The notes: generated by a model from the sequence alone, not told the origin. Shown: positions 7,480-29,200, counted from the first letter of the stretch. The stretch is 64,000 nucleotides of DNA from Candidatus Altiarchaeales archaeon (GCA_014727915.1 WJMO01000005.1:32001-96000), one strand, 5' to 3'. Translations and numbers: made by a program.

Positions 7480-8679
7480 ATGCAGTCAGAGGTCAACATC
7501 GGTTTGGTGGGCCACGTAGACCATGGTAAGACAACCCTGACCAAAGCCCTCTCCGGCCGGTGGACCGACACCCACAGCGAGGAAATACGCAGGGGAATCT
7601 CCATAAGGCTCGGCTACGCCGACATAGACCTTTACCGGTGCGAATCCTGCCCAGAGCCCGACTGCTTCACAACAGACAAGAAATGCGGCAAATGCGGGGG
7701 AGAAGCCAAGCTAATGCGCAGGGTGTCATTCGTCGACGCCCCAGGCCACGAGACCCTAATGGCCACCATGCTGTCCGGAGCCGCCATAATGGACGGCGCC
7801 CTTCTGGTTATCGCAGCCAACGAGAAATGCCCCCAACCCCAGACAGCCGAGCACCTCACAGCACTGGACAGCCTCGGAATAAAGAACATCGTCATCGCCC
7901 AGAACAAAGTCGACCTCGTGGAGAGCGACCGTGCCAAGGAGAACTTCAAGGAGATAAAAGAGTTCATAAAAGGCACTTCACTGGAAGACGCTCCCATCAT
8001 ACCCATCGCAGCACACTACGGAGTGAACATGGACATACTCATACAGGCCATGGAGGAGTTCATCCCCACGCCCGAACGCGACAAGAAGCTGCCTGCCCGC
8101 ATGTACGTGGCCCGCTCGTTCGACATCAACAAGCCAGGCGTCGACGTAACCGAACTTTCCGGAGGCATACTAGGCGGGTCCCTGACACAGGGGGAGATAA
8201 AGGTCGGCGACGAGATAGAACTGAGTCCCGGCGTGAAGAAGAAGAACACCTACCGGCCCATAACCACCAAGGTGGTCAGCTTGAGCGCCGGCGGGGAGGA
8301 AACTGATGCGGTCGACCCCGGAGGGCTGATAGCGATAGGCACCGAATTGGACCCCTCCCTGACCAAGTCAGACAACCTGTCCGGGAATGTCGTCGGCAAG
8401 CCCGGCACGCTGCCTCCAGTCAGGGAATCCCTCAAGCTCGATGTCAAACTACTCGACCGGCTGATAGGATTCGAAGAGGACATCAAGCCAATAGCGAAGG
8501 GAGAGCCGTTGATGCTCAGCTGCGGCAGCGCCGTCACCGTCGGCGTAGTCCAGAACCCCGGCAAGGGCGAGCTAGCATTGAAGCTCCCCGTCTGCGCAGA
8601 TGAAGGGGACAAGGTCGCCCTATCAAGGCGTGTGGGCGCCCGCTGGCACCTCATCGGATACGGAGTCATCAAAGACTAA
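7480..8679 (+). CDS. eif2g: translation initiation factor 2 subunit gamma
   Basis: [24 protein letters not shown], zinc ribbon, DAPGHE, QNKVD. Confidence 0.98.
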
Positions 8680-8680
8680 A

Positions 8681-9055
8681 ATGGATGTTGTCCTGGACAC
8701 CAACTTCCTGCTACTCCCCCATCAGATGGGCGTGGACATATTCTCGGAGATAACCAGGGTCGTGTCCGAGGAGCATCGGCTGATGACGCTATCCCCCGTA
8801 CTGGCGGAGCTCAACAACCTCATAGGGCCTTCAGGAGACGGGGTCGCAGCCAAGGTCGGGATGCAGCTGCTCCTGGAAAAGAAGGTCTTCGTAGTCGGAG
8901 TCCCAGAGGCCAATGCGGACGAAGCGATAGTAAACTACGCAAGTGACAACAAGGCGATAGTCTGCACCAACGACGGGGGTCTGAAGTCACGACTGAAGAA
9001 GAAGCGGGTCAAGGTACTATGCCTGAAGGGCAAGGACCACCTAGGATTCGCATAA
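8681..9055 (+). CDS. PIN-domain protein (Fcf1/Utp24-like)
   Basis: MDVVLDTNFL...ADEAI...CTND; conserved neighbour of aIF2-gamma. Confidence 0.9.
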   Translation: MDVVLDTNFLLLPHQMGVDIFSEITRVVSEEHRLMTLSPVLAELNNLIGPSGDGVAAKVGMQLLLEKKVFVVGVPEANADEAIVNYASDNKAIVCTNDGGLKSRLKKKRVKVLCLKGKDHLGFA

Positions 9056-9074
9056 TATTCTTTAAGGACTCTTA

Positions 9075-9941
9075 CTATTCGTGCCTTATTATCGTGCTCT
9101 CCTTGTCTAACGGGTTATCAACGAATTTTTGCAGTGTCATCCTGCCCTCGGCCACTTCACCGAGGTTGGCCAGCACCGGCAGCAGGTTGTTGTTGTAGAA
9201 CTGCTGTTTACCCATTGCAGTAGACCGTGTGCTATGGCCCGCTTTGAGGGCTGCTTTACCAGCTGCTTGTATCAGCTCTGGCTGAGCCAGTCCTTCACCG
9301 GGCTCCTTCAATCCCAGACTGTCGGCCCTGTCCCATATCCTCCTGCCCTCAACCCTGGCGTCCTCTATGATCTGGCCCAATGTCTTGTCGCAGTCGAAGC
9401 ACTCCCTGAATCTCATGTTGTTTCTGACATGCTCTGGAACAACATCCGCAAGTTTCATATTTTCCAGACTAGTAATCTGGCCTGGGATATGATTCCCTAG
9501 AACCGGGCTGTCCCGGCCTTGCTGCTCCAATGGCACGACCCTCATCGGCGTGGGCGTCAACCTGATCTCTTGCTCTGCGGGTGCCTGCGCACCATTTTCC
9601 AGTGGCCTTCCCTCGCACGTGAACCTGAGCTCGCCCGTGCTCTGAGCCACCTGCTTCATTAAATCCCTGTCTCCCCGCTTTAAAGCTGCCGCCGCCCTCT
9701 CCAACGCCCCCCTAACCTCCTTCATGTCCTCGCTTCTGCCTGTGCTGTCCCGAATAGCCAACAGCGAACTATGGCCGATCTGAGCTGCTTTGTTCGCAAG
9801 TCCCTTGCCCCTTATCTGCATCAGCCCGGGGTGAAGTTCCCCTGATTCGGATGTTAGGTCAACTTCTATGGTCGTCCTGCCACGTTCGTCCACGTTCTTG
9901 CTGACGCCTCTTATGTGCCTACGCTCCAGGGTGACTGCCAT
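9075..9941 (-). CDS. hypothetical protein carrying the shared N-terminal domain (insert gene 4)
   Basis: 288-aa ORF; its N-terminus aligns by eye with three neighbours. Confidence 0.75.
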   Translation of the reverse strand: MAVTLERRHIRGVSKNVDERGRTTIEVDLTSESGELHPGLMQIRGKGLANKAAQIGHSSLLAIRDSTGRSEDMKEVRGALERAAAALKRGDRDLMKQVAQSTGELRFTCEGRPLENGAQAPAEQEIRLTPTPMRVVPLEQQGRDSPVLGNHIPGQITSLENMKLADVVPEHVRNNMRFRECFDCDKTLGQIIEDARVEGRRIWDRADSLGLKEPGEGLAQPELIQAAGKAALKAGHSTRSTAMGKQQFYNNNLLPVLANLGEVAEGRMTLQKFVDNPLDKESTIIRHE

Positions 9942-9985
9942 AAAAGCATATGGGAATCGATCAGTTAATAAATAGGGACTTACTC

Positions 9986-11458
9986 CTATCCTTGCCTGTG
10001 GGTGCTGCCCGTGCTCAGCTGCATTCTTGTGAATCCGTCCAATATGGCCTTCGCTCTCCCCTGGTAGTGCTCTCTGGTGCCCGGGGGCAGGGCTTGTGTC
10101 AGCTCTCCCGTGTATCCTGCGAAACTCTCAGGGCTCATCTGCACCGCAACGGTCAGGTCCGCTATGGTCGGGGGCCCCATAACAGTGGAATTCAAAGCCC
10201 TATCAGATGGCGTATTCCTCACTCTCTCGGACGCGTACTTCAACGCCCGGGCGAAACACAACTCACCCGGCTCGCTAGCCTGTATCGTGGGATTTCCCTG
10301 CGGATAGGCTTGTTTCGCCCTCTCGGCCTGGCCGCGGAGGCACTCTCCCCTAACCCATCCTGCGACCTGGTTGACGTAGCGGGCGGCGTTCATGTAGGCG
10401 CTCCTCGCGGTAGCAACCTGCTTTTCATCAGCGGTGGCAGACGTCCGCCTGGCCATCTGGTCCATTGCCACTTGGCTCAGGTGCTCGTCGAGGGTCAGAC
10501 CCCTGCGCTGGGCTGCCCGGGTCATCTCAGATATCCTCTGCCCTATGTAGAGCTTGACGGCATTCGGGTTCTCAAGCTGGGGGTTGGACTTCAGGAACTC
10601 CGCGTCGGAGGCTGGGAACTCCCTGCCACACGCCGCCTCGGCGATGCGCGCGCTCTGCCTCATGATCTGAGCCTGGCTTCCGGGGTTTTCCATGTCGCTT
10701 CCCCGGTTGGGACAGTTCTTCATGTCAACCGTTAGAACGCCGAGCTTCACATCCGACTCCGCGTTTGGAGCGGCTGGTATGTTCTGCTGTACTGCCCCAG
10801 CAGCTGGGACGCTGCCTGTGACCGGCGGGGCCTGGACTTCACGAGCCCGCGGGGGTGCTGGGGCAGCTGGAGGTGTCGGGGGATATCCTACTCTCTGAGG
10901 TGCGACCTGCTCTGGCATGGTCTGCGGGGGCAACACGACCGGCGGCTGTTTTGTCTGCCGGACTACCGGCGGCGGCTCGACCTCCCCCTCCCTATGCCCC
11001 GGTGCCGGCGGCGGCTTTGGAGACTGCCTGATTCCCGTCCTTGGAAGGGGCGGAGGCCTGATGTTTCTGGTGGAGGTCGCAGGCTGGTCTGATGTCACCT
11101 CCCTACCTTCTGATATGAAGCTGAAAGCGTAGCATTTGTCTACTGCAGACTTCCTCTCAGGGTTTATGACTCCTCCTGTTCTGAGGTCGGCGAGGGCGTC
11201 CCCGAAGAAGCTCTGGACCTTAAGCTGAGTGTCCAAGTCTGGGGTGTCGGTCTCCCCCTGGACTTTCTTTATTGCGGACAGTCCTCTCTGCCCCATTGCC
11301 TCGATCTGCTGGTGGGTGCTGCCCGGGGGAACGACCTCCTCGTTTCCCGGCCTCAGATGCACGTATAGTGTGAGCTTCTCCTGCCTGTCGTGGCCGTGGT
11401 CTCCGACTTGGGCTTTGACGCTCTCTATGTGCTCCTCCCTAATCTGTTTTACGGCCAC
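9986..11458 (-). CDS. hypothetical protein: shared N-terminal domain, Pro-rich linker, helical C-terminal domain (insert gene 3)
   Basis: 490-aa ORF with GTG start; MAVKQIREEHIESV N-terminus; Pro-rich linker. Confidence 0.75.
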   Translation of the reverse strand: MAVKQIREEHIESVKAQVGDHGHDRQEKLTLYVHLRPGNEEVVPPGSTHQQIEAMGQRGLSAIKKVQGETDTPDLDTQLKVQSFFGDALADLRTGGVINPERKSAVDKCYAFSFISEGREVTSDQPATSTRNIRPPPLPRTGIRQSPKPPPAPGHREGEVEPPPVVRQTKQPPVVLPPQTMPEQVAPQRVGYPPTPPAAPAPPRAREVQAPPVTGSVPAAGAVQQNIPAAPNAESDVKLGVLTVDMKNCPNRGSDMENPGSQAQIMRQSARIAEAACGREFPASDAEFLKSNPQLENPNAVKLYIGQRISEMTRAAQRRGLTLDEHLSQVAMDQMARRTSATADEKQVATARSAYMNAARYVNQVAGWVRGECLRGQAERAKQAYPQGNPTIQASEPGELCFARALKYASERVRNTPSDRALNSTVMGPPTIADLTVAVQMSPESFAGYTGELTQALPPGTREHYQGRAKAILDGFTRMQLSTGSTHRQG

Positions 11459-11753
11459 CTTCAGATTCTCCAGTATGCTGTCTCTTTATATTCTCAAGCA
11501 GCTTGCTCTTCTCGTCGAGGTCGTGTATTATCTCCTCGTCCAGCCTAACCTTGATGTTCTCCACGTTCTTGGCGCCGAGCTTCTCCAACACCTCCGACGC
11601 GGGCTTGCCCGACAGCTTCCTGAGGAACTCAACGGTGTCCTCGTCCAGTTTTTCAGGGTCAACGTCGACTGTGATGTTCAGCTTGCCGGTCTCAGGGTCA
11701 GTGGACACCACAACCTCCCGGATACCCTCCTTCCTGATCTCAGGCTCCATCAC
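11439..11753 (-). CDS. small protein made mostly of the shared N-terminal domain (insert gene 2)
   Basis: IRKEGIREVVVSTDPETGKLNITVDVDP...LEKLGAKNVENI. Confidence 0.7.
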   Translation of the reverse strand: MMEPEIRKEGIREVVVSTDPETGKLNITVDVDPEKLDEDTVEFLRKLSGKPASEVLEKLGAKNVENIKVRLDEEIIHDLDEKSKLLENIKRQHTGESEGGRKTD

Positions 11754-11816
11754 ATATATACATTAAAAGAGGGGGTTATTTAATGGAATCCCCACACCCA
11801 AGGGCACAGTCTCCCG

Positions 11817-14093
11817 TCACATATCTGCCTTCTCTGTCGTGGCTGCTTTCTCAGCAGATTCAGTTACTGGTTGCTCTGCTCCGCCGGTCAGGCTGGCTAG
11901 CGTGTGTGCCACCACCCTCTGATGGTCTTCCTGTTCCATGGACTTGAGCCGGTCCGCGCCGAGGGCGCTCTGGTACACCATCCCGGCAATCAGCCGCGGA
12001 TCGTCCTTGCCGGTCTTTTCATCCGGGCCGAGCTCCAAGTAGCCTAGCATCTGCTCGGCGCCGAGCCCCAGGGACCGAAGACGTCCTGATATCTCGGCTC
12101 CAATCTGCTCTTGTGTCGCGCCGGCTGGGATGGGATGGGCCAACCTGTCCAGCAACCTCTCACGCTCACCCCCAGCTCCTGATTCCCCTCTCATTCTCCC
12201 GCTTATCTGGGCGAACATCTTTCCGTGTTCCGGCTCCCCCATGGACTCCAGCCTTTCATGTCCAAGGGCCCGGGTGTAAACAGCCCTGGCTATCATCCTA
12301 GGGTCGTCTGCCGGGTATTCCCCTGGTTTGGTGCAGGCTTCGAACTCCTCCGGGGTTATGCCCACGGCCTTCATCCTGTCGGATATCTCTGCGGCGACCT
12401 GCTCCGGCGGGACGTCTGGTTTAACAGGGGATCTTATCCTCTGCTCGATGCTCTGTCTTTCCCCCTCACCCTGCTCGGGAGGCTTGTGTCCCATCTTGTG
12501 AAGTATGTCGTTCACCATTCTGGCGTGTTCTTCACCGGTCATCCTGCCCTCACCGCCTTCCCCTCCGTTGACCCGTTCAGCGCCTAGTGACTGGAGGTAT
12601 ATAGCGTGCGCCCTGTAAAGCGGGTCATCGGGTCTCATGTTCTCGTCTGGCGGGGTCTGAACTGCTTCCAGGAACCTCTCGGATGTTATCCCCCCACCCT
12701 GCAACCTCGACCCTATCTCCGCGGCAATCTCGTCATTGGACGTTCCGGCGGGTATGGTCTCGGCCATGACCCTCTCCCTCATCCTCTCATCCATGGCTGT
12801 GGAGGGCCCGGCATCCTGTCTTGGAGGGCTTGCACCATCCGATGTTTCCCCTGCTGATCGCATGCCCCCCACCATCGCCAGCTCGTCCTCTGATACTATG
12901 CTCCCCAGCTCCCCATCGGTCAGGGCGCTCTCCTTCCTCCTTGCGGCTGCCCTGAGCCTCACCTCCCTATGGGCCTTCTGGTGGGGTCCCAGCCTGAAGC
13001 CCCTACCAGTATTCGGCGTGTACTCGTAGGGTTCCTCTATGAATTCGTTGCCCACCCTGAAGGTGAGGCTGTAGCTCTGGTCCATGCCGTTACGGTCGCC
13101 TGTGAACTCCCCCGACTTGTTCTTCGTGCCGTCGACTGCCGCGTTCAGGAAGTTCTGCGCCTCCAACTGGGTTTGCAGCTCGAAACCATGCGCCTTCTTC
13201 CTTATGGATTCCAATGAAGCCGGCCCAAGTTCTTCAAGCCGGTCGCTTGTCGGCTCCGGCCTTGGAACCATAGACTCACAACCCTCCCCTAACGTGACAT
13301 ACAATTTGACACCGGTCGGTGTCTTCTCGGCTTTGACCTCCTCTATGTCATCCGGCCTAATCGCGTCCGGGCCCCTAACAAAATCCCCTGGCTCTCCCGC
13401 CATAGGGGCTGCTACTGGACTCTCTGTTTTCGCCGTATTCACATCCCCGGTTGCAGTAGGGTCCCCGCCTGGAACAGCCCGTCTCTCAGCGGTCGCATCC
13501 TGACCTTCCGCTGAAGTTCTTACCTGCTGGTCTACGTCGCGCCTATCCTGCCTTTCCGATGTTGGCGCATCAGAAGTTGGGGTGCCGGGTCCTGGTGCGG
13601 TCGTAGCCTCTGGGTTAGCCGCTGGCCTCGGCGTCTCTGATGTTGCAGGTGCCGCCCTCTCGCCCTTTTCTGGTGGCATGTCCGCTGATTTCCCCCTTCT
13701 CTCGCCTCCTTTCTGCGCGGGCTGGGGCATGTCTCCTTCCACGAACTCGATCGTCTTGCACCCCTGGTCTATCAGGCCTGCCGTGATAAACGACAGGTCT
13801 CCAGTATCTCTTATCTCGTTGCCTGCCAGGTCGAGGAACTCCGCCGCCCTCTGCCTCTCATGCAAGCTCCTGTCTTTTGGGGATGTTCGGGCGTGTATTG
13901 CACTCAGCGAGTCCGCGCCGAGGTGTTCGAACCTGTCTGCCGGCCCCAAACCCGCGAACTCAGGACCCGGAGGAATAACACCCGCCTTCGGGTCCAGGTG
14001 AACGCGGATTGCCAGCTTACCATCCTCTCCCACTTCAGTGCGCACGCCCTTGATGTCCTCAGGCCTCAGCTGCTGGATCCTCTTGGCCATCAT
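11817..14093 (-). CDS. hypothetical protein: two copies of the shared N-terminal domain plus three ~90-aa helical repeats (insert gene 1)
   Basis: 758-aa ORF; internal repeats visible in the translation. Confidence 0.85.
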   Translation of the reverse strand: MMAKRIQQLRPEDIKGVRTEVGEDGKLAIRVHLDPKAGVIPPGPEFAGLGPADRFEHLGADSLSAIHARTSPKDRSLHERQRAAEFLDLAGNEIRDTGDLSFITAGLIDQGCKTIEFVEGDMPQPAQKGGERRGKSADMPPEKGERAAPATSETPRPAANPEATTAPGPGTPTSDAPTSERQDRRDVDQQVRTSAEGQDATAERRAVPGGDPTATGDVNTAKTESPVAAPMAGEPGDFVRGPDAIRPDDIEEVKAEKTPTGVKLYVTLGEGCESMVPRPEPTSDRLEELGPASLESIRKKAHGFELQTQLEAQNFLNAAVDGTKNKSGEFTGDRNGMDQSYSLTFRVGNEFIEEPYEYTPNTGRGFRLGPHQKAHREVRLRAAARRKESALTDGELGSIVSEDELAMVGGMRSAGETSDGASPPRQDAGPSTAMDERMRERVMAETIPAGTSNDEIAAEIGSRLQGGGITSERFLEAVQTPPDENMRPDDPLYRAHAIYLQSLGAERVNGGEGGEGRMTGEEHARMVNDILHKMGHKPPEQGEGERQSIEQRIRSPVKPDVPPEQVAAEISDRMKAVGITPEEFEACTKPGEYPADDPRMIARAVYTRALGHERLESMGEPEHGKMFAQISGRMRGESGAGGERERLLDRLAHPIPAGATQEQIGAEISGRLRSLGLGAEQMLGYLELGPDEKTGKDDPRLIAGMVYQSALGADRLKSMEQEDHQRVVAHTLASLTGGAEQPVTESAEKAATTEKADM
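11880..12780 (-). repeat. three tandem ~90-aa protein repeats
   Basis: AAEIGSRLQGGGIT..DDPLYRAHAIYLQSLGAERV / AAEISDRMKAVGIT..DDPRMIARAVYTRALGHERL / GAEISGRLRSLGLG..DDPRLIAGMVYQSALGADRL; boundaries approximate. Confidence 0.85.
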
Positions 14094-14300
14094 AGAAAAC
14101 TGGGAAACACACCCCTAAATACCGCATATTCAAAATTATTCAAAGAATTTTCAAAATAATCCTGACTTTTCCCCCTATAGTTGTTGTTTGCTGCTTTTAT
14201 ACCCTATTGGCGTAATATTATAGGTTTCAGATGCACCTGAGTCTGCCATTGCACTGGCAGAATGCAGGGAAGTATGTGAAGATCTGGGTGTGCAAATAAA

Positions 14301-14927
14301 ATGTACAAGATAGTTACAGTTGAGGACACGGTCAGGGTCCCGCCGGCTAGGTTCAGCGAAGACCTGGAGACCGTGATAACGCAGGAACTGGAGAACATGG
14401 TAGTCGGCAGGATAGACAAGAGCCTTGGAGTGGTGCTGGCTGTCACAGGCATCGACGAAGTCGGCGACGGGAAGATCATACTAGGCGACGGCGCAGTATA
14501 CTACAGCGCAAGATTCAAGATACTAGTCTACGAGCCAATGGTCAACGAGGTAGTCGAGGGCGAGGTCACTGAGGTCACGGAATTCGGCGTGTTCGTCGGG
14601 TTCGGCCCCATCGACGGGCTCATACACGTGTCCCAGATAACCGAGGACTTCATGAGCTACGACCAGAAGAACAGCTCGTTCGTGGGCCGGGAATCAAACA
14701 AGATACTCAAGGTAGCGGATGTCGTACAGGCCAGGATAGTCACGGTGAGCATGAAGTCCCGGGCCACGGAGTCGAAGATCGGATTGACGATGAGGCAGCC
14801 CTACCTGGGCAAGCTGGAGTGGATAGAGGACGACCGGAAGAAGCTCGAGGAGAAGATAAAGGCCGAAGACAACAAGGAAAAGGAGAAGGAAAAGAAGAAG
14901 GGCGGCAAGAAGGAGGGTGATAAATGA
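14301..14927 (+). CDS. rpoE1: RNA polymerase subunit E' (Rpo7)
   Basis: VRVPP, GDGAVYY, S1 domain GPIDGLIHVSQI, KIGLTMRQPYLGKLEWI. Confidence 0.97.
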   Translation: MYKIVTVEDTVRVPPARFSEDLETVITQELENMVVGRIDKSLGVVLAVTGIDEVGDGKIILGDGAVYYSARFKILVYEPMVNEVVEGEVTEVTEFGVFVGFGPIDGLIHVSQITEDFMSYDQKNSSFVGRESNKILKVADVVQARIVTVSMKSRATESKIGLTMRQPYLGKLEWIEDDRKKLEEKIKAEDNKEKEKEKKKGGKKEGDK

Positions 14928-18828: not shown

Positions 18829-21800
18829 TTATTCGTCTCCTCGGTCGTCGTCTTCGCTTCCCCCGGTTATGCCATAGTCTATCTGGCCTGACTCGTCTCG
18901 GTCTTCAAGCATGTCCTCCAACTGCCTTCCGACGCTCTTTGTGCGCTGCCTACCGAAACCTCCCATGTAGGTCATGTGTTCCTTGAGTGTTTGCATTCCT
19001 GCTCTGTCCTCACCCATCATCTCAGCGCCTAAATCCCCCACCTTCTCCTGGGCTGGGGATACGCCAGTCGAACCTGAGACTTCGCTATCTGGTGCTGCCT
19101 GGCTCGCCTGGGGTCCTGAACCCTCCTCGGTTTCTGATGGCTGTGCGGTTCCCGCATCTGCTGATGCGGTTGGCGCAGGCTCAGATGTCGGCGTTGGCTG
19201 CTGGCTCGCGTCCGGCTCTTGCGCAGGCTGTGATGTTGCGGTCGGCTGCTGGGTTGCATCAGGTTCTGGGGTTGATGGTGTGGTGTCAGGCTGTTGTGCG
19301 CTGGTCTCTGCCGCTTCGGGTTCCGGCGTCGTTGGCTGCTGTCCGTCGCCTGCTGCGGGTGCTCCCTGCTGGCTCTGGTCTGGCTGCGCCTCCGCCCCGC
19401 CCTCGGCTGCCTGGGCTTCGTTGGCTCTCATGTGGTTGAGTGTTGACTGTTTCAAAGCGTCGTTCTGGTCGGCGTTCATGCTCACCGCCTGGTCGTGTGT
19501 TAGGGCTCTCGTGTACGCTGTTGATGCGGTCTGCCCTCCGCTCCCGTATTCCGGGGCCTCGCCGGCTGGGGTGTCCACGAACTGTTGGAAGTCATCAGCG
19601 CTCACTCCCGCCTCTTGCATCTGCTGGGCCATCTCCGCCCCCTGCCGGTCTGTTTCAGCGTCTATCCTCGGATGGGGCCTCTGCTGCTGTTGTCCTCCGG
19701 TCCCCGCCTGTCCGCCCCGTCTGCTCTGGCTTCCGGTTGAACCTGCGGTCGTGGATGTTCCCCTACCATCCCTGCGCGCGCTGTATGCTGTCACAACGCT
19801 TTGGCCCGCGCCCCAGGCGCCGCGCACTCCCATCTTCCCAAGCCTCCATCCCAGGGGGAATGAGCTCAAACCCCCGGTCGCGGCGAACTTCAATGCTTCC
19901 ATGGGTGCGTGTATAAAAGCAATCTTGGCGGCTGCCACTCCCAGGTCCATGCCAATCCCTGCGGCTTTCCCTAGCACGAACCCTATCCTCGAGCTTGCCC
20001 TGTCCTGCCCCCTATAGCTTGTGACGGTATCGCGTATCCCCGTGGTTGACATGCCATCGAATACTCCGCTGAAGAACGTGCTCTCCCTTACGCCCCCCCT
20101 GACGGTGTTCAGCCCTTCCGATAGTTGTCCCGGGTCTGTTCCGAGCTTCCGAGCGGACAGTTGCATCTGCCGCTGTCTTATCTTGTTCAAAGTCGCCTCT
20201 CTTGTCGCCGGGTTCTGGAGGGCTGCGTTCACTCCCGCGGTCCCGGAGGGCATCATCGCGCCTCCCGGGTAGTCTGTGCGGCCGACGTCCTGGACGGCAT
20301 CCTGCCAGCTGGCTCCGCCTACGGCCTCCAGCAACTGGCTGTCGCTGGCGTTCCTCAGGTCTCCGACAGTGTTTATTCCTGCTTGCTGGAGGTTAGCCAC
20401 GGTCGTGTCGGAGTTAAGCCCCAGTGATTCCATGACCTCCCTGTTGTATCCGCTGTCTATCCCCAGGCCCTGGGCTGACTGCCCGATTGCCCTTCCAATA
20501 CCCGTCACTTCCATGACCTTGCTTACCGTGTAGGCCGATATTCCCAACCCCACCAGGGTCCCCGCTCCCATCCCTCCTATGCCTGCTATAGTGCCTATTA
20601 TGGCGAGCGCCTGGACTGTCATCGCCCATTTGCCGAGGCCCCATGCGGTCCCGATCACGCCCGCGCTTGCCATGGCTCCTAGGATGTTGCTTGCGACGTA
20701 TGATAGGCCTGCTCCTACGTTGTATATGCCCATTATGGACTTGCCAACAAGAGTCTCCGACCTGTAGAATGGTGTTTTCGGCTGCTGGGAGGCTGTGCTT
20801 GGCTGACTGCTTGGCCCGCCAGTGGTCTCTCCTAATCCCCTGCCTAGTCCGAAGCCCCATCCCCCGACCCATCTTCCGAAGGACCAGAGCCCGCTTCCAA
20901 CACCGAACATCCGCCCCTGGCGTGCGAACCATTTGCCCCACCTCTGCCTTCTCGCTGCTGTCCTCTTCTGATACCTCTCCGCAAAGCCTTTCATGCCTGG
21001 CATCTTGGAGAGCACCCTACTTGCTTTAGCTCTCTGGCCTACCCTAGCCCTTCTTGATATGGACTTCAATTCGCTGGTTCCCAGGCCGCCCTGCTCTGCC
21101 TCGTCACCTCCCATGAACATCTTTGAGATGTTCCGGCCCACGAATGACCCGCTCATGCCGATCGCACCCAACGCACCCGCATTATAGGACCACTTGGCCG
21201 CTCTCAAAAGGCTTCTCCCTATCATGTTCCCTGTCTTGGGCAGGGCTCCTCCTATGCCCATGCCTATGAACATGCCCAGCGGACCCCCAGCCAACGCGCC
21301 GATGGCTCCGCCTATAACCATTCCCATACCGCGTTTTCTGACCTGTCCCACACCCCACATGGCAGCCTTCTGCACGTGCTTACCAAATCCTAGCCCTACT
21401 CCCATGCCTATCGCAAGCCCGAGGGGGCCTCCCAGGGCGAGTCCGATGCCGGCTGATATGGCGATGCCCATCGCCCGGTGACCCAGGTATCCTCCGACGG
21501 CCACTCCCGCTCTCTTAGCCCATCCCGCGCCATAGTATGCGCCAAGTCCGATGCCGTATCCGGCCCATCCCAGCCCGTAACCGGCATAGTATGCTCCTTT
21601 GCCTGCGAGCCACGCGCCCTTGCCGGCCAGCCACAGTCCAGCGCCAGCAGCCATTCCCGCCACACCGATCAATGCTCCCAGACCGTATCCTCTCCCCAGC
21701 AGTCCTACGCTCCCTCTCATCAGAGAACCTCCCAGTCCGCTCAGACCCTTCGTAGCAGCCCAGCCTATGCCCATACCCAATCCCTTTAGTCCTGCCCAAC

Positions 21801-23160
21801 CGTATGACAGGGCACCGCTGCCAAGCTTACCTGCTGCGCCGCTGACAGTCTTCCAAGCCTGCCCAACCCGTCCTTGCTCCCATCTCTTAGCAGTCTGGCT
21901 CCACTTCCGCCTCCTCTCCGATGGCCTCTTACCCGGTTTCTTGCCGCTTTTAGGCCCTCCCGGCCGTTTTTTCATCTTCTTCCCGAGCCTTGATATGCTT
22001 CCCACCCCTGCTGACAGTCCGGCGGCGACCACGGCTTCCGCGCTCTGAGCCTGCATCATCTGCCCCGCCCCGACCATTGCAACACCTGCGAAGCCGGGGG
22101 TCAGCTGCCCCGCCCCAGATAGTATTGCCCCTATCATCGCAAGCGCTCCTGTGACTATCAAGGGGGAGATGATTATCATGCACATCAGGGAGATGGCCGC
22201 GAAAACGGTGAAATTCGACTCTACGGTCGGCCGGGCCTCCATCACTATCCCCGTTATCAGCACCCACATTGCCATGACGACATTCACCATAGCCCATGTA
22301 AGGCTGTACTTCAGGAACGTGCGCCCTATGCTCTTGGTGAAGTCCCACAGGTACAGGAGGCAGGTCAGAGGCATCATTATCGCCATCAGATGGATTATTG
22401 TATATCTCAACATGATCATCGTCACCGCCAGCAGGCCTACTATCTGACCGCAGCAGAAGGAGAAAAGATAGGCCTTGTTGTCCTTGCCTATCCCCTTGTA
22501 CGAGGATGCTATGCTCTTCCCAAAGTCCGGGCTGGTTGTGACCTGCTGGTATAGGCCGTCGATCCTGTTATAGCAGTGGTCCGGCACATCATATACTTCC
22601 GCGCATGTAAGCGGGGGCGGCCCGGGGTTGGCTATGGGCGGGGGGTCCTTCATTATCACGCCGCCTATCAGGCTGACCGTGATCTGGTATGAGATGTCAA
22701 TGAGCATCTGGTAGAAGTAAGGGGAGAAGGGCACTATGATAAGTGCGAGCAGCAGCCTCTGGAGCTGCGCCTTTGCGGCCGCTCTCTCTCCCGGGCTGTT
22801 GGAGAATATCATCATCTTTATGGCGGTTATGAGTATTGCGAATATGACCAGGGGCATGATCCACCGCATCACCATCCCGGCCATTAACAGCGTGTTGCCC
22901 TGGTTTATGACGGGCCTTCCAAGGGTTTCATTGCTTAGGCTCCAGGGTATGAGGTTTATCAAGAGGGCGGAGTCCCCCATGAAAGTATGCAATATGAACG
23001 CGTAGAAGTCTATGACCAGATTGGAGAACCATTCGCTAACCCCCTTTATCACGTCTCCTGAGATGGCTGCGGCACTCTGTGAAAAAACCAGTATCAACAG
23101 TATTGCTGACGCAGCTTTAGCCTTCTTCGCAGAATAAACCGTCTCTAAGGATGTTTTCAT
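18829..23160 (-). CDS. extended VirB6/TrbL-like polytopic membrane protein (1443 aa)
   Basis: N-terminal multi-TM region with SNSPGERAAAKAQLQRLLL and LRYTIIHLMAIMMPLTCLLYLWDFTKSIGRTF (VirB6-like R..L....PL.....T motif), then glycine zippers, HhH-like motif, shared helical repeat and an acidic P/Q/T tail. Confidence 0.7.
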   Translation of the reverse strand: MKTSLETVYSAKKAKAASAILLILVFSQSAAAISGDVIKGVSEWFSNLVIDFYAFILHTFMGDSALLINLIPWSLSNETLGRPVINQGNTLLMAGMVMRWIMPLVIFAILITAIKMMIFSNSPGERAAAKAQLQRLLLALIIVPFSPYFYQMLIDISYQITVSLIGGVIMKDPPPIANPGPPPLTCAEVYDVPDHCYNRIDGLYQQVTTSPDFGKSIASSYKGIGKDNKAYLFSFCCGQIVGLLAVTMIMLRYTIIHLMAIMMPLTCLLYLWDFTKSIGRTFLKYSLTWAMVNVVMAMWVLITGIVMEARPTVESNFTVFAAISLMCMIIISPLIVTGALAMIGAILSGAGQLTPGFAGVAMVGAGQMMQAQSAEAVVAAGLSAGVGSISRLGKKMKKRPGGPKSGKKPGKRPSERRRKWSQTAKRWEQGRVGQAWKTVSGAAGKLGSGALSYGWAGLKGLGMGIGWAATKGLSGLGGSLMRGSVGLLGRGYGLGALIGVAGMAAGAGLWLAGKGAWLAGKGAYYAGYGLGWAGYGIGLGAYYGAGWAKRAGVAVGGYLGHRAMGIAISAGIGLALGGPLGLAIGMGVGLGFGKHVQKAAMWGVGQVRKRGMGMVIGGAIGALAGGPLGMFIGMGIGGALPKTGNMIGRSLLRAAKWSYNAGALGAIGMSGSFVGRNISKMFMGGDEAEQGGLGTSELKSISRRARVGQRAKASRVLSKMPGMKGFAERYQKRTAARRQRWGKWFARQGRMFGVGSGLWSFGRWVGGWGFGLGRGLGETTGGPSSQPSTASQQPKTPFYRSETLVGKSIMGIYNVGAGLSYVASNILGAMASAGVIGTAWGLGKWAMTVQALAIIGTIAGIGGMGAGTLVGLGISAYTVSKVMEVTGIGRAIGQSAQGLGIDSGYNREVMESLGLNSDTTVANLQQAGINTVGDLRNASDSQLLEAVGGASWQDAVQDVGRTDYPGGAMMPSGTAGVNAALQNPATREATLNKIRQRQMQLSARKLGTDPGQLSEGLNTVRGGVRESTFFSGVFDGMSTTGIRDTVTSYRGQDRASSRIGFVLGKAAGIGMDLGVAAAKIAFIHAPMEALKFAATGGLSSFPLGWRLGKMGVRGAWGAGQSVVTAYSARRDGRGTSTTAGSTGSQSRRGGQAGTGGQQQQRPHPRIDAETDRQGAEMAQQMQEAGVSADDFQQFVDTPAGEAPEYGSGGQTASTAYTRALTHDQAVSMNADQNDALKQSTLNHMRANEAQAAEGGAEAQPDQSQQGAPAAGDGQQPTTPEPEAAETSAQQPDTTPSTPEPDATQQPTATSQPAQEPDASQQPTPTSEPAPTASADAGTAQPSETEEGSGPQASQAAPDSEVSGSTGVSPAQEKVGDLGAEMMGEDRAGMQTLKEHMTYMGGFGRQRTKSVGRQLEDMLEDRDESGQIDYGITGGSEDDDRGDE

Positions 23161-23210
23161 GGCGGCAGCCCAGTAAAAATATGGGTTCCAAACTATTTAA
23201 TTATAATATA

Positions 23211-26200
23211 CTATGCCTTACCGTCGAATTCGTCCCTTGCCTTCGCGAAGTCCAGGGCCTTCCCACTGAAGAACCTGTAGGACATTACAGCCGCGAAGGC
23301 TATCAGCAACACCCACAGGTTGTCCATCAGGTAATCGCAGAATTCCGGGGGCTTGTCCACTGGGACGGTGTCCACGAACGGGACTGACCTCTTGAAACCA
23401 TGGTCGTCGTGGCAGGTTATGACTGCCGTGATCAGCCGGTCCACGGGGAACATTATCTCCTCGTTAAGGTCGTACCATCCAGTGTATTCTATGTACGGGT
23501 GCTGGAACTGTATGTAGAAGTGCTTGCAGTATGGGTCGTACCCGTCTTCTGAGCTCTGGTTCGTGCATACGTTAAGCACTGCCGGCCATACCTTTATTAT
23601 CCTGGAGTTCTCGTTGAAGTCCGATTCCAGGTAGAACTCTTCAGGCGGGGGCTTGTTGACCCTCACCGTAAGGCCTCCGCTTCCGGCTCCGTGTTGTGCT
23701 CCGTCGGGGCAGATGGGAGCGTCTCCGAAGGCGGGGAAGTCCTGGCTCTGGAAGGGGGTGTAGACTTCAATGTCGGTGAATCCTAGCTCGTACTCTGTGA
23801 GCGAGTTGCTGTCTAGTATGAGCGTGTACGACTGTGGCGCAATGCCCTTCGGCTCGCATTCTTTGAGGTATTCTATATTGCATTTGCTCTCTCCGAAGTT
23901 CCATTTGTACCTGAACTGGAAGTGGTCCAGCCAGTAGGCTTTGAACTCCTCCTCGGCGCAGTGGTTCCTGTACTTGCTGGGCACTCCCTCGCATGGGACC
24001 AGCCCAGACAGAACCCACTTGTTCAGGTCCTTGCAGGTCTCGTTGTCGATGGGGTAGAGGTTTTCGAACTCCTCCTTGTATTCGCAGTCGCACCTGCCCC
24101 CCTCGCATACCAGATCCGCTATCTGGTTGCACATTGGCGGGCAGTCCTGGATAGAAGAGCACTGGTAGTCGACGTCCCTCCACTCTTCGCTGTCGCAGTA
24201 TAGCGCGTACCTCACATACGCTTTGCCTATGGGCTTGCTCTTCTTCAGGAATCTCACGTTGGTCCACTCGTCAACCCTCCAGTTGTCGTCGTCCAGGCCA
24301 CGCTCAACATCCTGCATCCTCCAGTAAAGCGCTGCGAAGTCGTAGTAGTGCGGTTCGTCCTCGTGGAAGTTCCTTAGCAGGCCGATGTTGGAGGATATCT
24401 CGTATATGTAGTTGTAGCATTCAGCACGGCCCTTGTCAACAAGCCATAGGGGGTGCTTCCAGGTGTACTGTGAGCCGTATGCGCTGAACTGGTCTATGAA
24501 GAAGTGGCTCTTCTTGGATGGGTTGTACGTCCACCTGACATACAGTGGGTCGCTTGTCTCGTATTCCAAGTCTATCTCCTGGCCTGGCGGGGTCAACCGG
24601 GTCTTGTAGCATTCCTTGGCCAGGTCGAGGAGCCTTGCGTTCTCCTCGGTGACCTCCTTCCAGTCCTGGGGAAGTGTCGACTGCAACGCGGTCCCGTCAT
24701 GCCAGGGGTAGTACTTCTTCGGCGTGAAGTCCATCATAAGGTATTGTTCGTAAGCGTCTTCTATGGTTAGTGTGAACCCGTCGAATAGGTCGTATACGAA
24801 TCTTCCGGGGCTCCTTGTCGACTCCTCGTCCACGGCTTTGAAGTTCAGGTAGGCGAAGGCCCAGTTCTCGTTGCTGCTGTCCTCGTGTCCGTGCTGTATC
24901 GTCCCGTTCACCTTTATCACCGCCTCGGAGTTCCCCGAGTCTATGGGGTTCTCCACCCTCAGATGGTCTCCGTAGTCGTCAGCCCATATCCTCGAATAGT
25001 CCTTCATCTTCTCGTAGACTATCTCCCACTCGCACGGTCCCTTGTCCTTCGTAACCAGGTAGTCTGCGAGGTTTACGCTGTCGTGGTGCCAGCACCCCCA
25101 GCAGGTGTAGTCGCACCTGCAGTCGTGGTAGTAGTAGCATTCCAGCTCTATGGGCACCCCGTTGCATGTGGTCCAGTAGGTGCACTCGCACCACGAGTGC
25201 GCGGGCGGGTTGTCGTTATCCCACTGGAAGGGTATGGGGTCCTGGGTGTATGGGGTCCTGGGCTGGTTGCCCCGGCAACAGCAGGGCGGCGTGAAGTCCC
25301 CGGCGTACACTTCATTGTGGGTAACGAACCATTCCGTCTCGCATGTTATGTCGTTGACTATGATCTCCTCCCACTGCTCCCACCTGTAGCTGATGACCTT
25401 CTCCTCGAGCCTGCTGCAACCCTGCCAACCGCACTGTTTGACCAGCAGCTCCCGTTTCATCTCGTTTATTACGCTGTACTTGAGCCCCACGTTCAGGTAC
25501 CTGGTCTCCGGGCTCAGCTGCACCTCCTGCTTGTCCTCGTGCATGACCGAAGCAGGCGCCGGCGGCTTCTCGGTCAGCAGGTTGTCCTTTCCATATAACT
25601 TGTTGCTTGTCTTGGCCTTGCTGAAAGATTGCACGTCAACTACGCCGTGGTTCTCGTCGTATTCCGTTACCATGATGTCCATCTGGGCGAACGGCTCCTG
25701 CCCGGGGTTTCTCGGGTATGTGTGAACCTCTTTCCTCTGCATCCTACCGCATGATTTCGGGATGTGGGCTGCGGCGTCGACGGCGTAGGGGTCCACTGGC
25801 ATTCCATCGACTACCTTCCCTCCTGTGAATCCTCCATGCCCTGACATGACCACGTTGCACTGGTGCGCTCCACCGGACACGTCAGACCTCTTGCACGTTG
25901 TTGGTTCCATCGAGTTGCAGGTCCCTGGCATGCAACCCATGCATCCTCCGTCGACCTCCCCTCCGCCTGCCATGTCGCATCCTTTGATCCCATCCTCCTT
26001 GTCCCAGTCGCCTCTCATCGCCCGCCCGCAGTTGCACTCCTCTGATATGCACTCCAGCGTCCGGCCGTCCGGCCCGTTGAGGAACGACTTGTACGGTTTC
26101 ACGGTGGCGTCTATGCCCCAGAAGTCGCCGTTGCAGACCGGCAGCGGCTCCCCATACTGGTACTGGTCTCCGAAGTTCCGGGCCTCGAACCATATGGGGC

Positions 26201-29200
26201 TCTCCGGGCACCTGTACGGCTCCGAAGCTACGCAGTAGGTGCAGTACTCGGGGCCTTTGCCCGTGGCGCAGCCGTCGGGTGGCTTTCCCCCGCCGCTGAA
26301 CAGCCAGCGATCGTCCTCATACCACGAGTCCTGGCCCCTGCACGTGGCCTCCCAACCCGCTGCCTCGCTGCAGTTCGGTATCATGAATCCTGCCCCCGAG
26401 TATATCCAGACCGGCTCATCCCCGCTCCTCGTCCACGTCTGAGACCATTCCTCCTGGTCTTCAACGTCCTTCGGCTTGCAGTCCCTCCCAGTCCACGTCC
26501 AGTTCTCCTTGCAGCAGGCTGTCTCGCTGCTTGGGGGTGTGCTGCTGTGTATGTTGCCGGTGCATATGAGGTCCGTGTCCGGGAGGCATTCGTCGTCGTC
26601 TTCGCATGGGCCCTCCTCCTCCTCGCACCATTGTCCGGTCTCATCATGCTTCATCCAGCACCATGTCCTCTCCTCTATGCCTCCGCTGCTCTGGTCTTTG
26701 ACGCCTATCGTATCGTACATCTCGACGAAACGAACTGCCTCTCCCGTCGGGAGGCAGCACTCGTGCGTGAGGTCCCATTCGGTTTCGCTGGGGCAGCAGT
26801 GGCCCTCCTGGAACCTGTCTATGCCCTTAGCATGGGCTGTTATGTTGTTCGCGCTGCAGTGCAGGTACTTTATCTGCGGGTCCTCCGGGGGTATCCTGTA
26901 GTGGGCGCAGTCGCTGCTCGTCTGGCAGACCCCGCCCATCCCCTCCAACCACTTGCCCCTCGCCTCTTCCGGGCATTCTTCAATATCCTGGTAGCAGAGC
27001 TCGTTCTCTTCGAACCTGCAGCAGTCGTCTATGTAGTGGGTTCCCGCAGGGCAGCAGAACTTGCTCCCCCCCTCGTATGATTCCACGCACTTCAAACCCT
27101 GGATGCAGTCCTCGTCTTCCCTGCAAGGCCCCTCGTGGACGTTCAGCAGCCCGCAATCGTACCTGCCTGGCAGAGTGTAAGCGCAGTTCGGCTCCATGTC
27201 CTCCGGGTATCCTACGTCGGTCGTCAGGAAGCTCAGCTCGGGGACGATCTTGAAAACCTTCGCCCACACGCTGTCCACGTTGAACTGCCTGTAGTACATG
27301 AGGTCGTAGTTGAAGCAGAGGTCCGGGCAGACGGTGTGCTTGTTGCATGCGAGGCACGGGTCGTGGCGTTTGCTCCCCGGACGATCCCACTCATCCCTTG
27401 TCTCCGCCTGCGGGCACTCTCCCCCGCTGCTGGTCTCGAAGGCGCAGTAGCCCGGCCGACTGCAGTAGAAGTCCTCGTCTATGGAGTCGTTGCGCTTCCA
27501 GTACCTGTCCCGCACAGTGTCGCCGTCCGGGAACACTCCCGGCATGGTTCCAGTGTACTCCGCGTACTCGTCGAAGAAACCAGCTCCGTGGACGTAACCG
27601 TATTTCTCAAGCTGGTCGTTGCAGTTCCTTCCATGGAAGTGCGTGGGCGGATAGTGGCTGTAGTTGTATCCTGCGGACTTGTTCTCGTCCCATACCACCC
27701 TGACCCCCCCGTATCCGCAGTAGCCCTGGCTGGCGACGGACTGGCTGTGGTCTGAGGTGTAGGGTGTGCACTGCCACCCTCCCATGTCGATGTTGTCCCC
27801 GTTCTCGAACATCTGCTGGCACTGTTCCGGGGGGTCGTAGCTGACCCAGCCTTCTCCCATGTCACAGCCTGCGGGCCCCACATTGCATGTCACCTCGACA
27901 CCTCCAACTTCGCATGTGTTGTCCGGCGGGCAGTTCGGGCACGGGCACGGCAGGGTCTCCCTCCTGTTGCAGGTAGCCCACCTGCAGTAGTATTCGACGC
28001 AGCTCTGGTCCGCGCAGGGCATGATCCATACCTCCCAGTCCGTCCACGCCCCTCCTGGGCCTGGGTTGTAGAGGTGCATCCAAAAGGGAGGCTGCTTCCA
28101 CTCTATCTCCCTGACAAAGTATGCCGTGACGTTGGTTATGATGGACTCGACCGCCTTCTGAACCACTGTTTCATCCGGCAGCCCGTTCTCGAAGTCGTAT
28201 TTCTCGTCGTATATGCCGTCCTGCCGGTGGTATGCCGGGTTATCGGCTGCCGCATCGTCGTCGAGGTCCAGGTATCCGTAGTAGTCTGCCTGCTTCTCCC
28301 AGTAACCGCACTTTGCTATTGGGGTCGGGTCGAAGGGGTTTCCCGCGTTATAGTGTATGGAGGCTATGGCCGACCCTAGGCTGCAGGTGGAGAACCCGCT
28401 CCAGCAGTTGTCGCAACCCCATATCCTCTCGATCGTGTCGTCATTCCACCACATCAGCCCCATGCCGACGGTCTCTATCTCGTATATGTGCTGGCTGGGC
28501 CTCATGAGCTGGTAGTATTCGAGGCCCTTGTTGGCTCCGAACCTGGAGACCTCGAAGGCCGAGATGTAAGTGCCTGGCTCGTCGTAGAACTTGCCCTCGT
28601 CTCGCATTGCGTACGTGCAGTTCCCAAAACCGCCTATGCCTATCAGCTCACTGTACGTTTCCTCTATCTTCTGGTATGGCCCCAGGTTGAACGTCTTGCA
28701 CCTCCCCCTCGCGCGTGTCTCCCCCATGCTGTCGCATATCCGGGACAGTATGTAGTCTGTGTGGTACTCTTCCTCGTTGAATACTCTTAGCTTGTTGATG
28801 TAGTCGCTGTCGTCCACGCCCAATACCTGGTATTCGCCCCCGACTAGCACATAGTCCCCGAATGTGCTTTCCTTCGGGTCTGTCAGCAGGGGCAGCCGCC
28901 GGTAGTTGACGTGCTTTGTCCTGACCCTGGTCGCGACACCCGCGGAGACCAGATCCTCGCAGTTTGGGTCGGCACCCCAGTCTATGCTGTCCCCGTCTAT
29001 CTTCCCGCAGGTGTATTCGCCGTTGTTCTTGACCCTGATGAACCTTAGGAAGCAGTTTAGCAGGTCCTTCGGGGCGCCACCCGCTATCAGAGGGTCCAGG
29101 TTCTTGTCGTATACTTCACTGTAGCATATGTCCTCCCCGTCCTCCTCGTAGCAGTCCAATACCAGCCTGCCTTTGTCGTCAACCAACACCTCAGCGTAGT

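Follow-up and report, generated by a model that had tools for sequence, protein, structure and literature searches.

Gene organization of the array

In the 64,000-nucleotide (nt) window analyzed in this study, that is, the whole stretch of DNA from the Candidatus Altiarchaeales archaeon (GCA_014727915.1 WJMO01000005.1:32001-96000), the open reading frame (ORF) listing revealed a minus-strand array of four ORFs at positions 9075-14093, encoding proteins of 288, 490, 104, and 758 amino acids (aa), designated A288, B490, C104, and D758, which together carry five copies of one small domain. D758 (11817-14093, minus strand) contains two of the copies, N-domain copy 1 (13707-14093) and copy 2 (12978-13376), connected by a Pro/Ala/Thr/Glu-rich linker, and continues through a spacer into three tandem repeats of ~100 aa each (aa 435-745; 11859-12791, minus strand; R1, 12486-12791; R2, 12162-12485; R3, 11859-12161). 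C104 (11439-11753, minus strand; isoelectric point [pI] 4.87) consists of the domain only, and its database copy, P0010, begins one codon later, so that it is 103 aa long from an ATG. B490 (9986-11458, minus strand) uses a GTG start with a GGAG 10-13 nt upstream, and comprises an N-domain (aa 1-~130, 11069-11458), a Pro-rich linker (~aa 130-230) and a C-terminal part of ~250 aa, while in A288 (9075-9941, minus strand) the N-domain (aa 1-~121, 9579-9941) is followed by a C-terminal part of ~160 aa.

The four genes are tightly packed: C104 and B490 overlap by 20 nt, the gaps downstream of D758 and of B490 are 63 and 44 nt, respectively, and A288 ends 20 nt from a convergent gene that encodes a PIN-domain protein. 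By eye, the starts of D758, C104, and A288 were each seen to be preceded, at 25-33 nt, by a TATA-like box; together with the GGAG and the gene overlap, these boxes suggest three transcripts, with C104 and B490 co-transcribed. A promoter scan of bacterial type, which is ill-suited to archaea, returned 0 sites. The host genome (G000) is a metagenome-assembled genome of 1.81 Mb in 13 contigs with 90.6% completeness. The third-position GC content (GC3) of the array was host-like, 0.65-0.71 vs. 0.66-0.78 in eight flanking genes, and the GC content of the region, raised to 0.60, had its source in the second codon positions, that is, in Ala/Pro/Gly-rich proteins. These intact long ORFs and their host-like codon-position GC argue for genes that are kept.

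Homology of the five domain copies

A profile built from the alignment of the five copies matched exactly five places in the 1.81-Mb genome, namely 9585-9941 (A288, E 6.2e-36), 11081-11455 (B490), 11442-11750 (C104), and 13005-13370 and 13707-14090 (both D758), and nothing else at E <= 1. The ten possible pairs were then compared by Smith-Waterman score against 300 shuffles. Six of them were clearly above chance (z 4.8-13.8), with the observed score reached by 0-1 of the 300 shuffles: A288-D758N1 (z 12.3), B490-D758N1 (11.3), B490-D758N2 (13.8), D758N1-N2 (7.4), C104-D758N1 (5.4), and C104-D758N2 (4.8). The other four, A288-B490 (z 1.8), A288-C104 (1.2), B490-C104 (0.9), and A288-D758N2 (0.4), were at chance level, so the homology is transitive through D758, every copy being tied to the others via one of its two copies. 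Consistently, blastp with the genome's complete set of 17,417 ORFs as the database connected A288 with D758 (E 0.009) and B490 with D758 (E 0.002). Run with default filters, phmmer missed the paralogy among the copies.

C104 is the least similar of the five, and its membership was assayed at the profile level. In hhalign, the alignment of eight short proteins of the C104 type (described below) matched that of the four long N-domains, from which C104 was excluded, with a probability of 93.4% and an E value of 2.5e-7 over 58 columns. Further, a profile of the seven foreign short proteins ranked C104 first in the genome (3.7e-33), D758 second (3.3e-4), and A288 third (0.022); B490 was absent from this ranking, in which noise begins at E 2.2. 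These profile and pairwise comparisons establish that the five copies are homologous. An earlier note on this DNA had described a four-gene minus-strand array with five copies of one domain, and the hidden Markov model (HMM) of the aligned copies, the shuffle test, blastp, and hhalign all bear it out, including the significant alignment of the N-termini. The domain of the long proteins is, at ~120-130 aa, bigger than the motif given in that note. Its end is marked by one more conserved Gly and by a stretch, F-[IV]-x-E-G, that looks like a strand; the short proteins have neither.

Predicted fold and identity of the domain

AlphaFold2 modeling of C104 from eight sequences gave a predicted local distance difference test (pLDDT) of 81.8 and a predicted template modeling score of 0.55. 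The model consists of two strands (residues 11-18 and 25-31) that form a beta-hairpin, followed by two helices (38-47 and 52-93), the second being 42 residues long, and it exposes surfaces typical of oligomers, suggesting that the protein may act in an oligomeric form. Foldseek with this model yielded 0 matches at E <= 0.001 in the PDB (best 0.62) and a best E of 0.12 in BFVD, and VIA-align, which is independent of Foldseek, found no chain at Z >= 5 among 48,161 (best Z 3.6). The domain alignment used in a PDB sequence-profile search gave a best E of 0.2, and Pfam, NCBIfam, PADLOC, and PHROGs held no convincing or consistent family for the domain.

Several weak matches were assessed and dismissed. 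Notch NOD (PF06816) scored 22.7 bits on C104 against a cut-off of 20, yet covered only 27 of the 56 profile positions, and only three of the eight short proteins matched it at E <= 5; given only 27 residues and three of eight members, it was judged a local strand-helix resemblance. Also dismissed were fvmX3-analog (E 5.2e-4, one of eight), hnRNP_Q_AcD (two of eight), phrog_5333 (E 0.0086), RNA_pol_A_CTD, HTH_28, and DUF2997, as was the weak match of PADLOC PD-Lambda-2_C to C104 (E 0.0069), the other five proteins scanned having no PADLOC match. Among type II antitoxin families, C104 matched BrnA_antitoxin at E 0.11 and RHH_1 at E 0.77, and one homologue matched Xre-like-HTH at E 0.12; none of these matches comes near its cut-off. 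The candidate for a housekeeping identity was Enolase_N, as the N-terminus of A288 shows some likeness to the hairpin at the start of the enolase encoded in this genome (genome-wide blastp E 0.17). The hhalign comparison of the domain alignment with the enolase N-terminus reached a probability of only 2.2% over 22 columns (E 0.021), on which ground this identity was rejected, and there was no Pfam Enolase_N match either. The possibility that the N-termini belong to a known housekeeping domain was therefore not borne out. As judged from these sequence and fold searches, which gave no evidence for a known identity, the copies represent a previously undescribed small domain family.

Distribution of the family

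In an exhaustive search of 1.84 billion representative proteins with the five-copy profile, nine proteins were found at E <= 0.001, these being the three long proteins of the window and six short proteins of 78-95 aa. When 5.8 billion proteins were searched by word index with the profile of the short family, six were returned. Each of the six short homologues forms a single-member cluster; their contigs, taken from ENA, Logan, or JGI, measure 502-13,288 bp, with 13.3 kb for that of P0006 and 10.7 kb for that of P0009. The short proteins (n = 8) share 36-47% identity; their pI values are 4.7-5.4 in six cases, 6.1 in one, and 8.9 in one. By this alignment, the domain-only protein of the C104 type is the conserved member of the family.

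Within the phylum, carriers of the family were two of the 61 genomes, the window's own and G013, which belongs to another genus of the same family, and the domain family was not found in G001, a genome of the same genus with 92% completeness. A288, B490, and D758 each occurred in one of the 61 genomes, their own. Locus scans of single short proteins were empty (P0009 in metagenome contigs and P0006 in genome contigs), viral contigs scanned with P0009 and P0010 gave no locus, and neither plasmids nor phages yielded a tblastn match to P0010. The counting of family members, which the earlier note had put forward as a check, thus gave nine among the representatives and two among the phylum genomes; with so few carriers in the phylum, the term "polymorphic" that it had applied to the array is a stretch.

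Insertion of the array and of a second short-long pair at different sites

Every gene flanking the array is on the plus strand. Before it lie the genes of ribosomal protein S6e, the initiation factor 2 gamma subunit, and the PIN_9 protein, and after it those of RpoE' (SHS2_Rpb7-N plus S1), S24e, S27ae, DUF429, and aTrm56. RpoE' was located in five relatives, four of which (G001, G013, G004, and G002, but not G011) were compared; each of these has a spacer of 79-253 bp between the PIN gene and the RpoE' gene that comes after it. The spacer in the window measures 5,245 bp, from the end of the PIN gene at 9055 to the start of the RpoE' gene at 14301. Because the two genes are adjacent in 4/4 relatives, the array is considered a strain-specific 5.2-kb insertion (9056-14300), bracketed by no direct repeats that we could find and with no integrase found nearby.

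As a side observation, the RpoE' matches at two loci, L011 (G002:C10:68972-69574) and L012 (G011:C8:171594-172166), contain one in-frame TGA each, for which recoding, an error in sequencing, or the boundary of a gene could be responsible.

In G013, tblastn detected a 95-aa short homologue with 40.7% identity to C104, directly followed by a long gene (P0012) whose product has 695 aa if translation begins at a TTG and 677 aa in the NCBI annotation. The pair sits between arcTGT and an AIRS-like gene, and the same two genes are 316 bp apart in G000. The N-terminus of the G013 long protein could be aligned with the long N-domains without a shift in register, though the similarity was weak (E 0.0031, probability 10%). 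Its C-terminal 426 residues (aa 270-695 of P0012) matched only themselves, Pfam and PDB sequence searches with the protein found nothing, and AlphaFold2 of aa 290-695 from the single sequence was unusable (pLDDT 39.9). The sequence of this C-terminus (L007:7095-8312, plus strand) looks globular, with a hydrophobic strand plus His and, ~75 residues on, a hydrophobic strand plus Gln-Gly-Cys, an arrangement reminiscent of the clan-CD cysteine peptidases with their His/Cys dyad. Since the array and the G013 pair are both inserted in separate housekeeping neighborhoods, the unit appears to be a short-plus-long pair located at a different site in each of the two genomes.

C-terminal parts of the long proteins

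The three longer proteins had been said to continue through Pro/Ala-rich linkers into unrelated C-terminal regions. Linkers rich in Pro/Ala/Thr were confirmed in B490 and D758, both of which carry long hydrophobic-poor stretches after the N-domain, whereas A288 has a short one only. That the C-terminal regions are unrelated holds, as no match was seen between those of A288 and B490, or between either of them and the D758 repeat. Aa 240-490 of B490 matched only themselves among the 5.8 billion proteins, the C-terminal part of D758, apart from a repeat treated below, had no relative within the family and phylum genomes to which that search extended, and the Atlas models of A288 and B490 had a pLDDT of 0.45 with no usable match. 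A direct DNA repeat of 36 nt, 75% identical, was seen between the A288 3′ end (9136-9171) and D758 R1 (12538-12573); it is too weak to count and has no significant protein match.

In the four array proteins, mean Kyte-Doolittle values over 19 residues peaked at 0.16-0.97, too low for a membrane helix, in line with the lack of transmembrane segments reported earlier, and none had an N-terminal hydrophobic stretch for export, as judged from hydrophobicity and not from a dedicated signal-peptide predictor. Toxin, immunity, or trafficking families, or indeed families of any other kind, were matched by none of A288, B490, and D758 at E <= 0.001 in Pfam, NCBIfam, PADLOC, and PHROGs. The array also leaves no room for immunity genes, because the gaps are 44 and 63 nt and A288 lies 20 nt from the PIN gene, so that the earlier remark on the absence of obvious ones stands. 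With no such family matched and no export signal seen, the view of the long proteins as toxins or exported proteins finds no support.

A tentative reading as a short-plus-long pairing cassette

The small partner is conserved, its long partners are orphans, the short-then-long order is tight in two genomes, the insertions are scattered over two sites, and the family is rare and free of known domains. From this combination we infer an accessory cassette of conflict type and not a housekeeping locus, in which the shared domain would serve as a pairing module and the short protein would bind the long N-domains as a partner, cap, or chaperone; we favor this reading tentatively and with less than even confidence. 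In detail, a conserved domain-only protein of ~80-100 aa would be paired with one or more long proteins in a cassette that moves between genomic sites. Each long protein would carry a divergent copy of the beta-hairpin-plus-helix domain, then disordered linkers, then fast-evolving C-terminal parts. If the shared domain is an oligomerization module through which C104-type proteins bind the long N-domains, the short protein may control how the variable parts assemble or act. The four-gene array may have grown from a minimal short-plus-long pair by duplication and domain shuffling, the products of which would include D758, with its two N-domains and three repeats, and the sharing of one repeat with a neighboring membrane protein (see below).

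The coupling of C104 to B490 by a 20-nt overlap and the position of the 95-aa homologue directly before the long gene in G013 support this pairing, and the lack of relatives of the long partners among the 1.84 billion representatives and the 60 other phylum genomes agrees with a fast-evolving partner. The suggestion that the 104-aa protein acts as an adaptor likewise fits, as the C104 type is conserved (36-47% identity, n = 8) and directly precedes a long partner in both readable genomes, which makes it a plausible candidate for such a role. Several observations weigh against the pairing reading. The pairwise comparison showed no significant similarity between C104 and its own coupled neighbor B490 (z 0.9), and in this genome three long genes stand beside one short gene. 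The N-terminus of the G013 partner matches weakly, so that the conserved pairing amounts to one firm and one weak case. Moreover, the C-terminal parts may be largely disordered, given the pLDDT of 0.45 for A288 and B490.

The same small upstream gene coupled to a larger downstream gene would also be expected of a conflict cassette that acts inside the cell in the manner of toxin-antitoxin or abortive-infection systems, in which the upstream short protein would neutralize the long effector by binding or mimicking its N-domain. The sporadic insertions between housekeeping genes, at different sites and without an integrase, the patchy distribution, and the fast divergence of the long partner are in keeping with it. 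We consider it unlikely, however, because no antitoxin, toxin, or defense family was matched (best PD-Lambda-2_C E 0.0069, BrnA 0.11, RHH 0.77), three long genes face one short gene, and homology between the two partners is not known for toxin-antitoxin-type pairs.

The orphan status of the long proteins could instead mean that they are young genes without a specific function, either the remnant of an unrecognized integrated element or the outcome of runaway duplication. No relatives of them were found among the representatives or in the phylum (for the B490 part, among the 5.8 billion proteins as well), their models are of low confidence or disordered, and a same-genus genome lacks the insertion. 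For window 8600-14400, the listing of sequencing runs showed neither an RNA nor a DNA run, an outcome that speaks neither for nor against this origin. Against this, ORFs of 288-758 aa remain intact in ~60% GC DNA with host-like third-position GC, and three of the starts have TATA-like boxes upstream. The short protein, in addition, is conserved across at least eight distinct sequences from different sources, and no viral, plasmid, or phage relatives were found. An origin of this kind is accordingly regarded as improbable.

The D758 repeat, P0013, and a conjugation-type apparatus

An HMM built from the MAFFT alignment of the three D758 repeats found the repeats themselves with domain E values of 1.6e-42 to 9.9e-48, which are self-matches by construction. 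Among the 17,417 ORFs, one other match was obtained, a single copy in the tail of P0013 (19381-19698, minus strand; E 1.5e-5, 20% identity to R1), the next ORF having an E of 0.52. The D758 repeat was found in one of the 21 family genomes, the window's own. P0013 (18829-23160, minus strand) is a 1443-aa polytopic membrane protein encoded 5 kb from the array. After the D758-type repeat, its tail continues as a long Pro/Thr/Gln/Glu-rich region resembling the D758 linker, and a helix-hairpin-helix-like stretch was noticed in the tail region at 18829-20400 (Pfam RNA_pol_A_CTD E 0.18, far below the cut-off).

The N-terminal ~400 aa of P0013 are VirB6/TrbL-like, preceded by a pilin-like hairpin. This region was matched in 21/21 family genomes, usually in several copies, and orthologues are present at the same locus in G001 and G013. 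Six of the seven P0013-family members examined matched Pfam T4SS_pilin (best E 1.2e-6) and three matched TrbL (best 7.9e-6), while the P0013 of the window matched T4SS_pilin only, at E 0.0018, below the cut-off; a PDB profile search with the N-terminal alignment gave 0 matches. A pilin-like region ahead of a VirB6-like region has been described for CedA (PMC9905601).

On contig C3 of the host genome, a 768-aa AAA_10 (VirB4-type) ORF lies ~4 kb from P0013 paralogues, two of which are encoded by 1685- and 691-aa ORFs near it (G000 C3:65550-76323), and another pair of paralogues is found at C12:247948-252560. No convincing coupling protein was detected in this genome of 90.6% completeness: PF12696 had no match, and PF02534 and PF10412 matched only P-loop stretches of ~45 residues in ORFs of 516 and 546 aa. 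PF03135 had no match in the genome either. In the window, P0013 is one of two giant genes (18829-29936, minus strand) between aTrm56 and an M50 peptidase gene. The second giant encodes a secreted protein of 2241 aa that is rich in Cys and carries a Peptidase_M23 domain (E 8.7e-14) at its N-terminus and a membrane anchor at its C-terminus.

These features bear on a reading in which the long proteins are clients of a conjugation-type apparatus (VirB4/VirB6/pilin) that exports or transfers them, with C104 as a secretion chaperone or adaptor; it would provide the effector idea of the earlier note with a candidate machine. The recurrence of the D758 repeat 5 kb away in the P0013 tail, in this genome only of 21, and the AAA_10 ORF close to P0013 paralogues are compatible with it. 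So are the small size and acidity of C104, shared in pI (4.7-5.4) by six of the eight short proteins, and a patchy, hypervariable distribution that is typical of effectors. In contrast, the array lies outside any secretion locus and lacks a convincing coupling protein, a toxin or enzyme family, and an immunity gene, and the VirB6-like family occurs in 21/21 family genomes vs. the cassette in only two. The repeat common to P0013 and D758 may be plain domain shuffling, and the known archaeal relatives of the apparatus, Ced and Ted, are described as importing DNA (PMC9905601). Taken together, export by such an apparatus does not seem probable. A more specific form of the idea must be called very doubtful. 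In it, the proteins of the array would be the first candidates for protein clients of a conjugation-type apparatus in archaea, and the domain and its free-standing paralogue would form a composite recognition signal by which hypervariable cargo is brought to the tail of the VirB6-like channel protein.

Cytoplasmic scaffold or regulatory proteins that dock on the P0013 tail through the common ~100-aa repeat and are not exported would account for the two loci being 5 kb apart and for long disordered linkers and helical repeats that resemble those of scaffold proteins, but are very unlikely, since only D758 has the repeat and the A288 and B490 C-terminal parts do not match it, P0013 and its orthologues occur without the array in same-genus G001 and most relatives, and the G013 pair (contig C29) is not beside the VirB6-like gene of that genome (contig C9).

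Significance and comparison with known systems

If the preferred reading of a short-plus-long pairing cassette is true, the domain would be a new protein-protein recognition domain, and the array a compact archaeal example of a domain-only paralogue that controls multi-domain relatives. Archaeal conjugation-type machines are treated only as DNA importers in PMC9905601. Should the P0013 link be functional, it would offer a first handle on non-DNA targets of such machines in Altiarchaeota-like archaea, and should the composite-signal reading be true, the array would represent, in archaea, the equivalent of effector delivery with the help of a chaperone. With long proteins that are orphans and a family that is tiny (two of 61 genomes plus six metagenome fragments), the general importance is uncertain.

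Under Zhang/Aravind-type definitions, polymorphic toxin systems combine a conserved N-region and variable C-regions with toxin, immunity, and trafficking components. The array has the conserved N-region and the variable C-regions, while a toxin domain, an immunity gene, and a trafficking domain were not found. The polymorphic effector-like architecture of the earlier note is thus real as regards a shared N-domain on unrelated C-termini, but the designation "polymorphic effector" is only partly supported and not established, as no toxin domain, immunity gene, export signal, or convincing coupling protein was found.

Three further systems resemble the array in logic and not by homology. For LXG toxins, small helical partners are reported to bind the conserved N-terminal domain and to form a composite targeting signal (10.1101/2023.07.21.550046 / PMC10801868, PMC13560087). 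Like the array, these type VII secretion substrates of Bacillota have a conserved N-domain on variable C-termini and separate small partners encoded side by side with them. However, the C104 model is a beta-hairpin plus helices and not an all-helical hairpin, and the host here is an archaeon; the array, moreover, has no toxin domain or immunity gene that could be found, and its short partner shows detectable homology to the N-domain. Pfam scans of the four proteins and the eight short homologues found no LXG or WXG100 family, these scans being general ones and not a search aimed at type VII secretion.

In Agrobacterium, VirE1 is reported to be a small acidic secretion chaperone co-expressed with VirE2, a type IV secretion substrate (PMC4513855, PMC5389803). 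As in that pair, a small acidic protein is encoded in the array directly upstream of a much larger partner in a genome with a VirB-type apparatus: C104 has a pI of 4.87 and overlaps B490 by 20 nt, which is a resemblance only. For the array, in contrast, no convincing coupling protein was found, and the two show no sequence or fold relation. VirE1 is also not known to be a paralogue of part of VirE2.

P0013 itself resembles VirB6/CedA-like proteins (PMC9905601, PMC12102498) in having a pilin-like hairpin and a TrbL/VirB6-like polytopic region, to which a long C-terminal tail is added. In contrast, the array proteins are not membrane proteins and match no apparatus family, and one ~100-aa repeat is their sole link to it.

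By defining domains, the array belongs to none of LXG, VirE1/VirE2, and the third comparator, the microProteins. These proteins, such as Id and LITTLE ZIPPER, are domain-only paralogues that titrate the dimerization domain of larger proteins. The concept comes from eukaryotic transcription factors, whereas the long proteins of the array have no recognizable DNA-binding or enzymatic domain. Like the microProteins, C104 is a single-domain homologue of the putative interaction domain of multi-domain relatives, a likeness that suggests regulation by heteromer formation.

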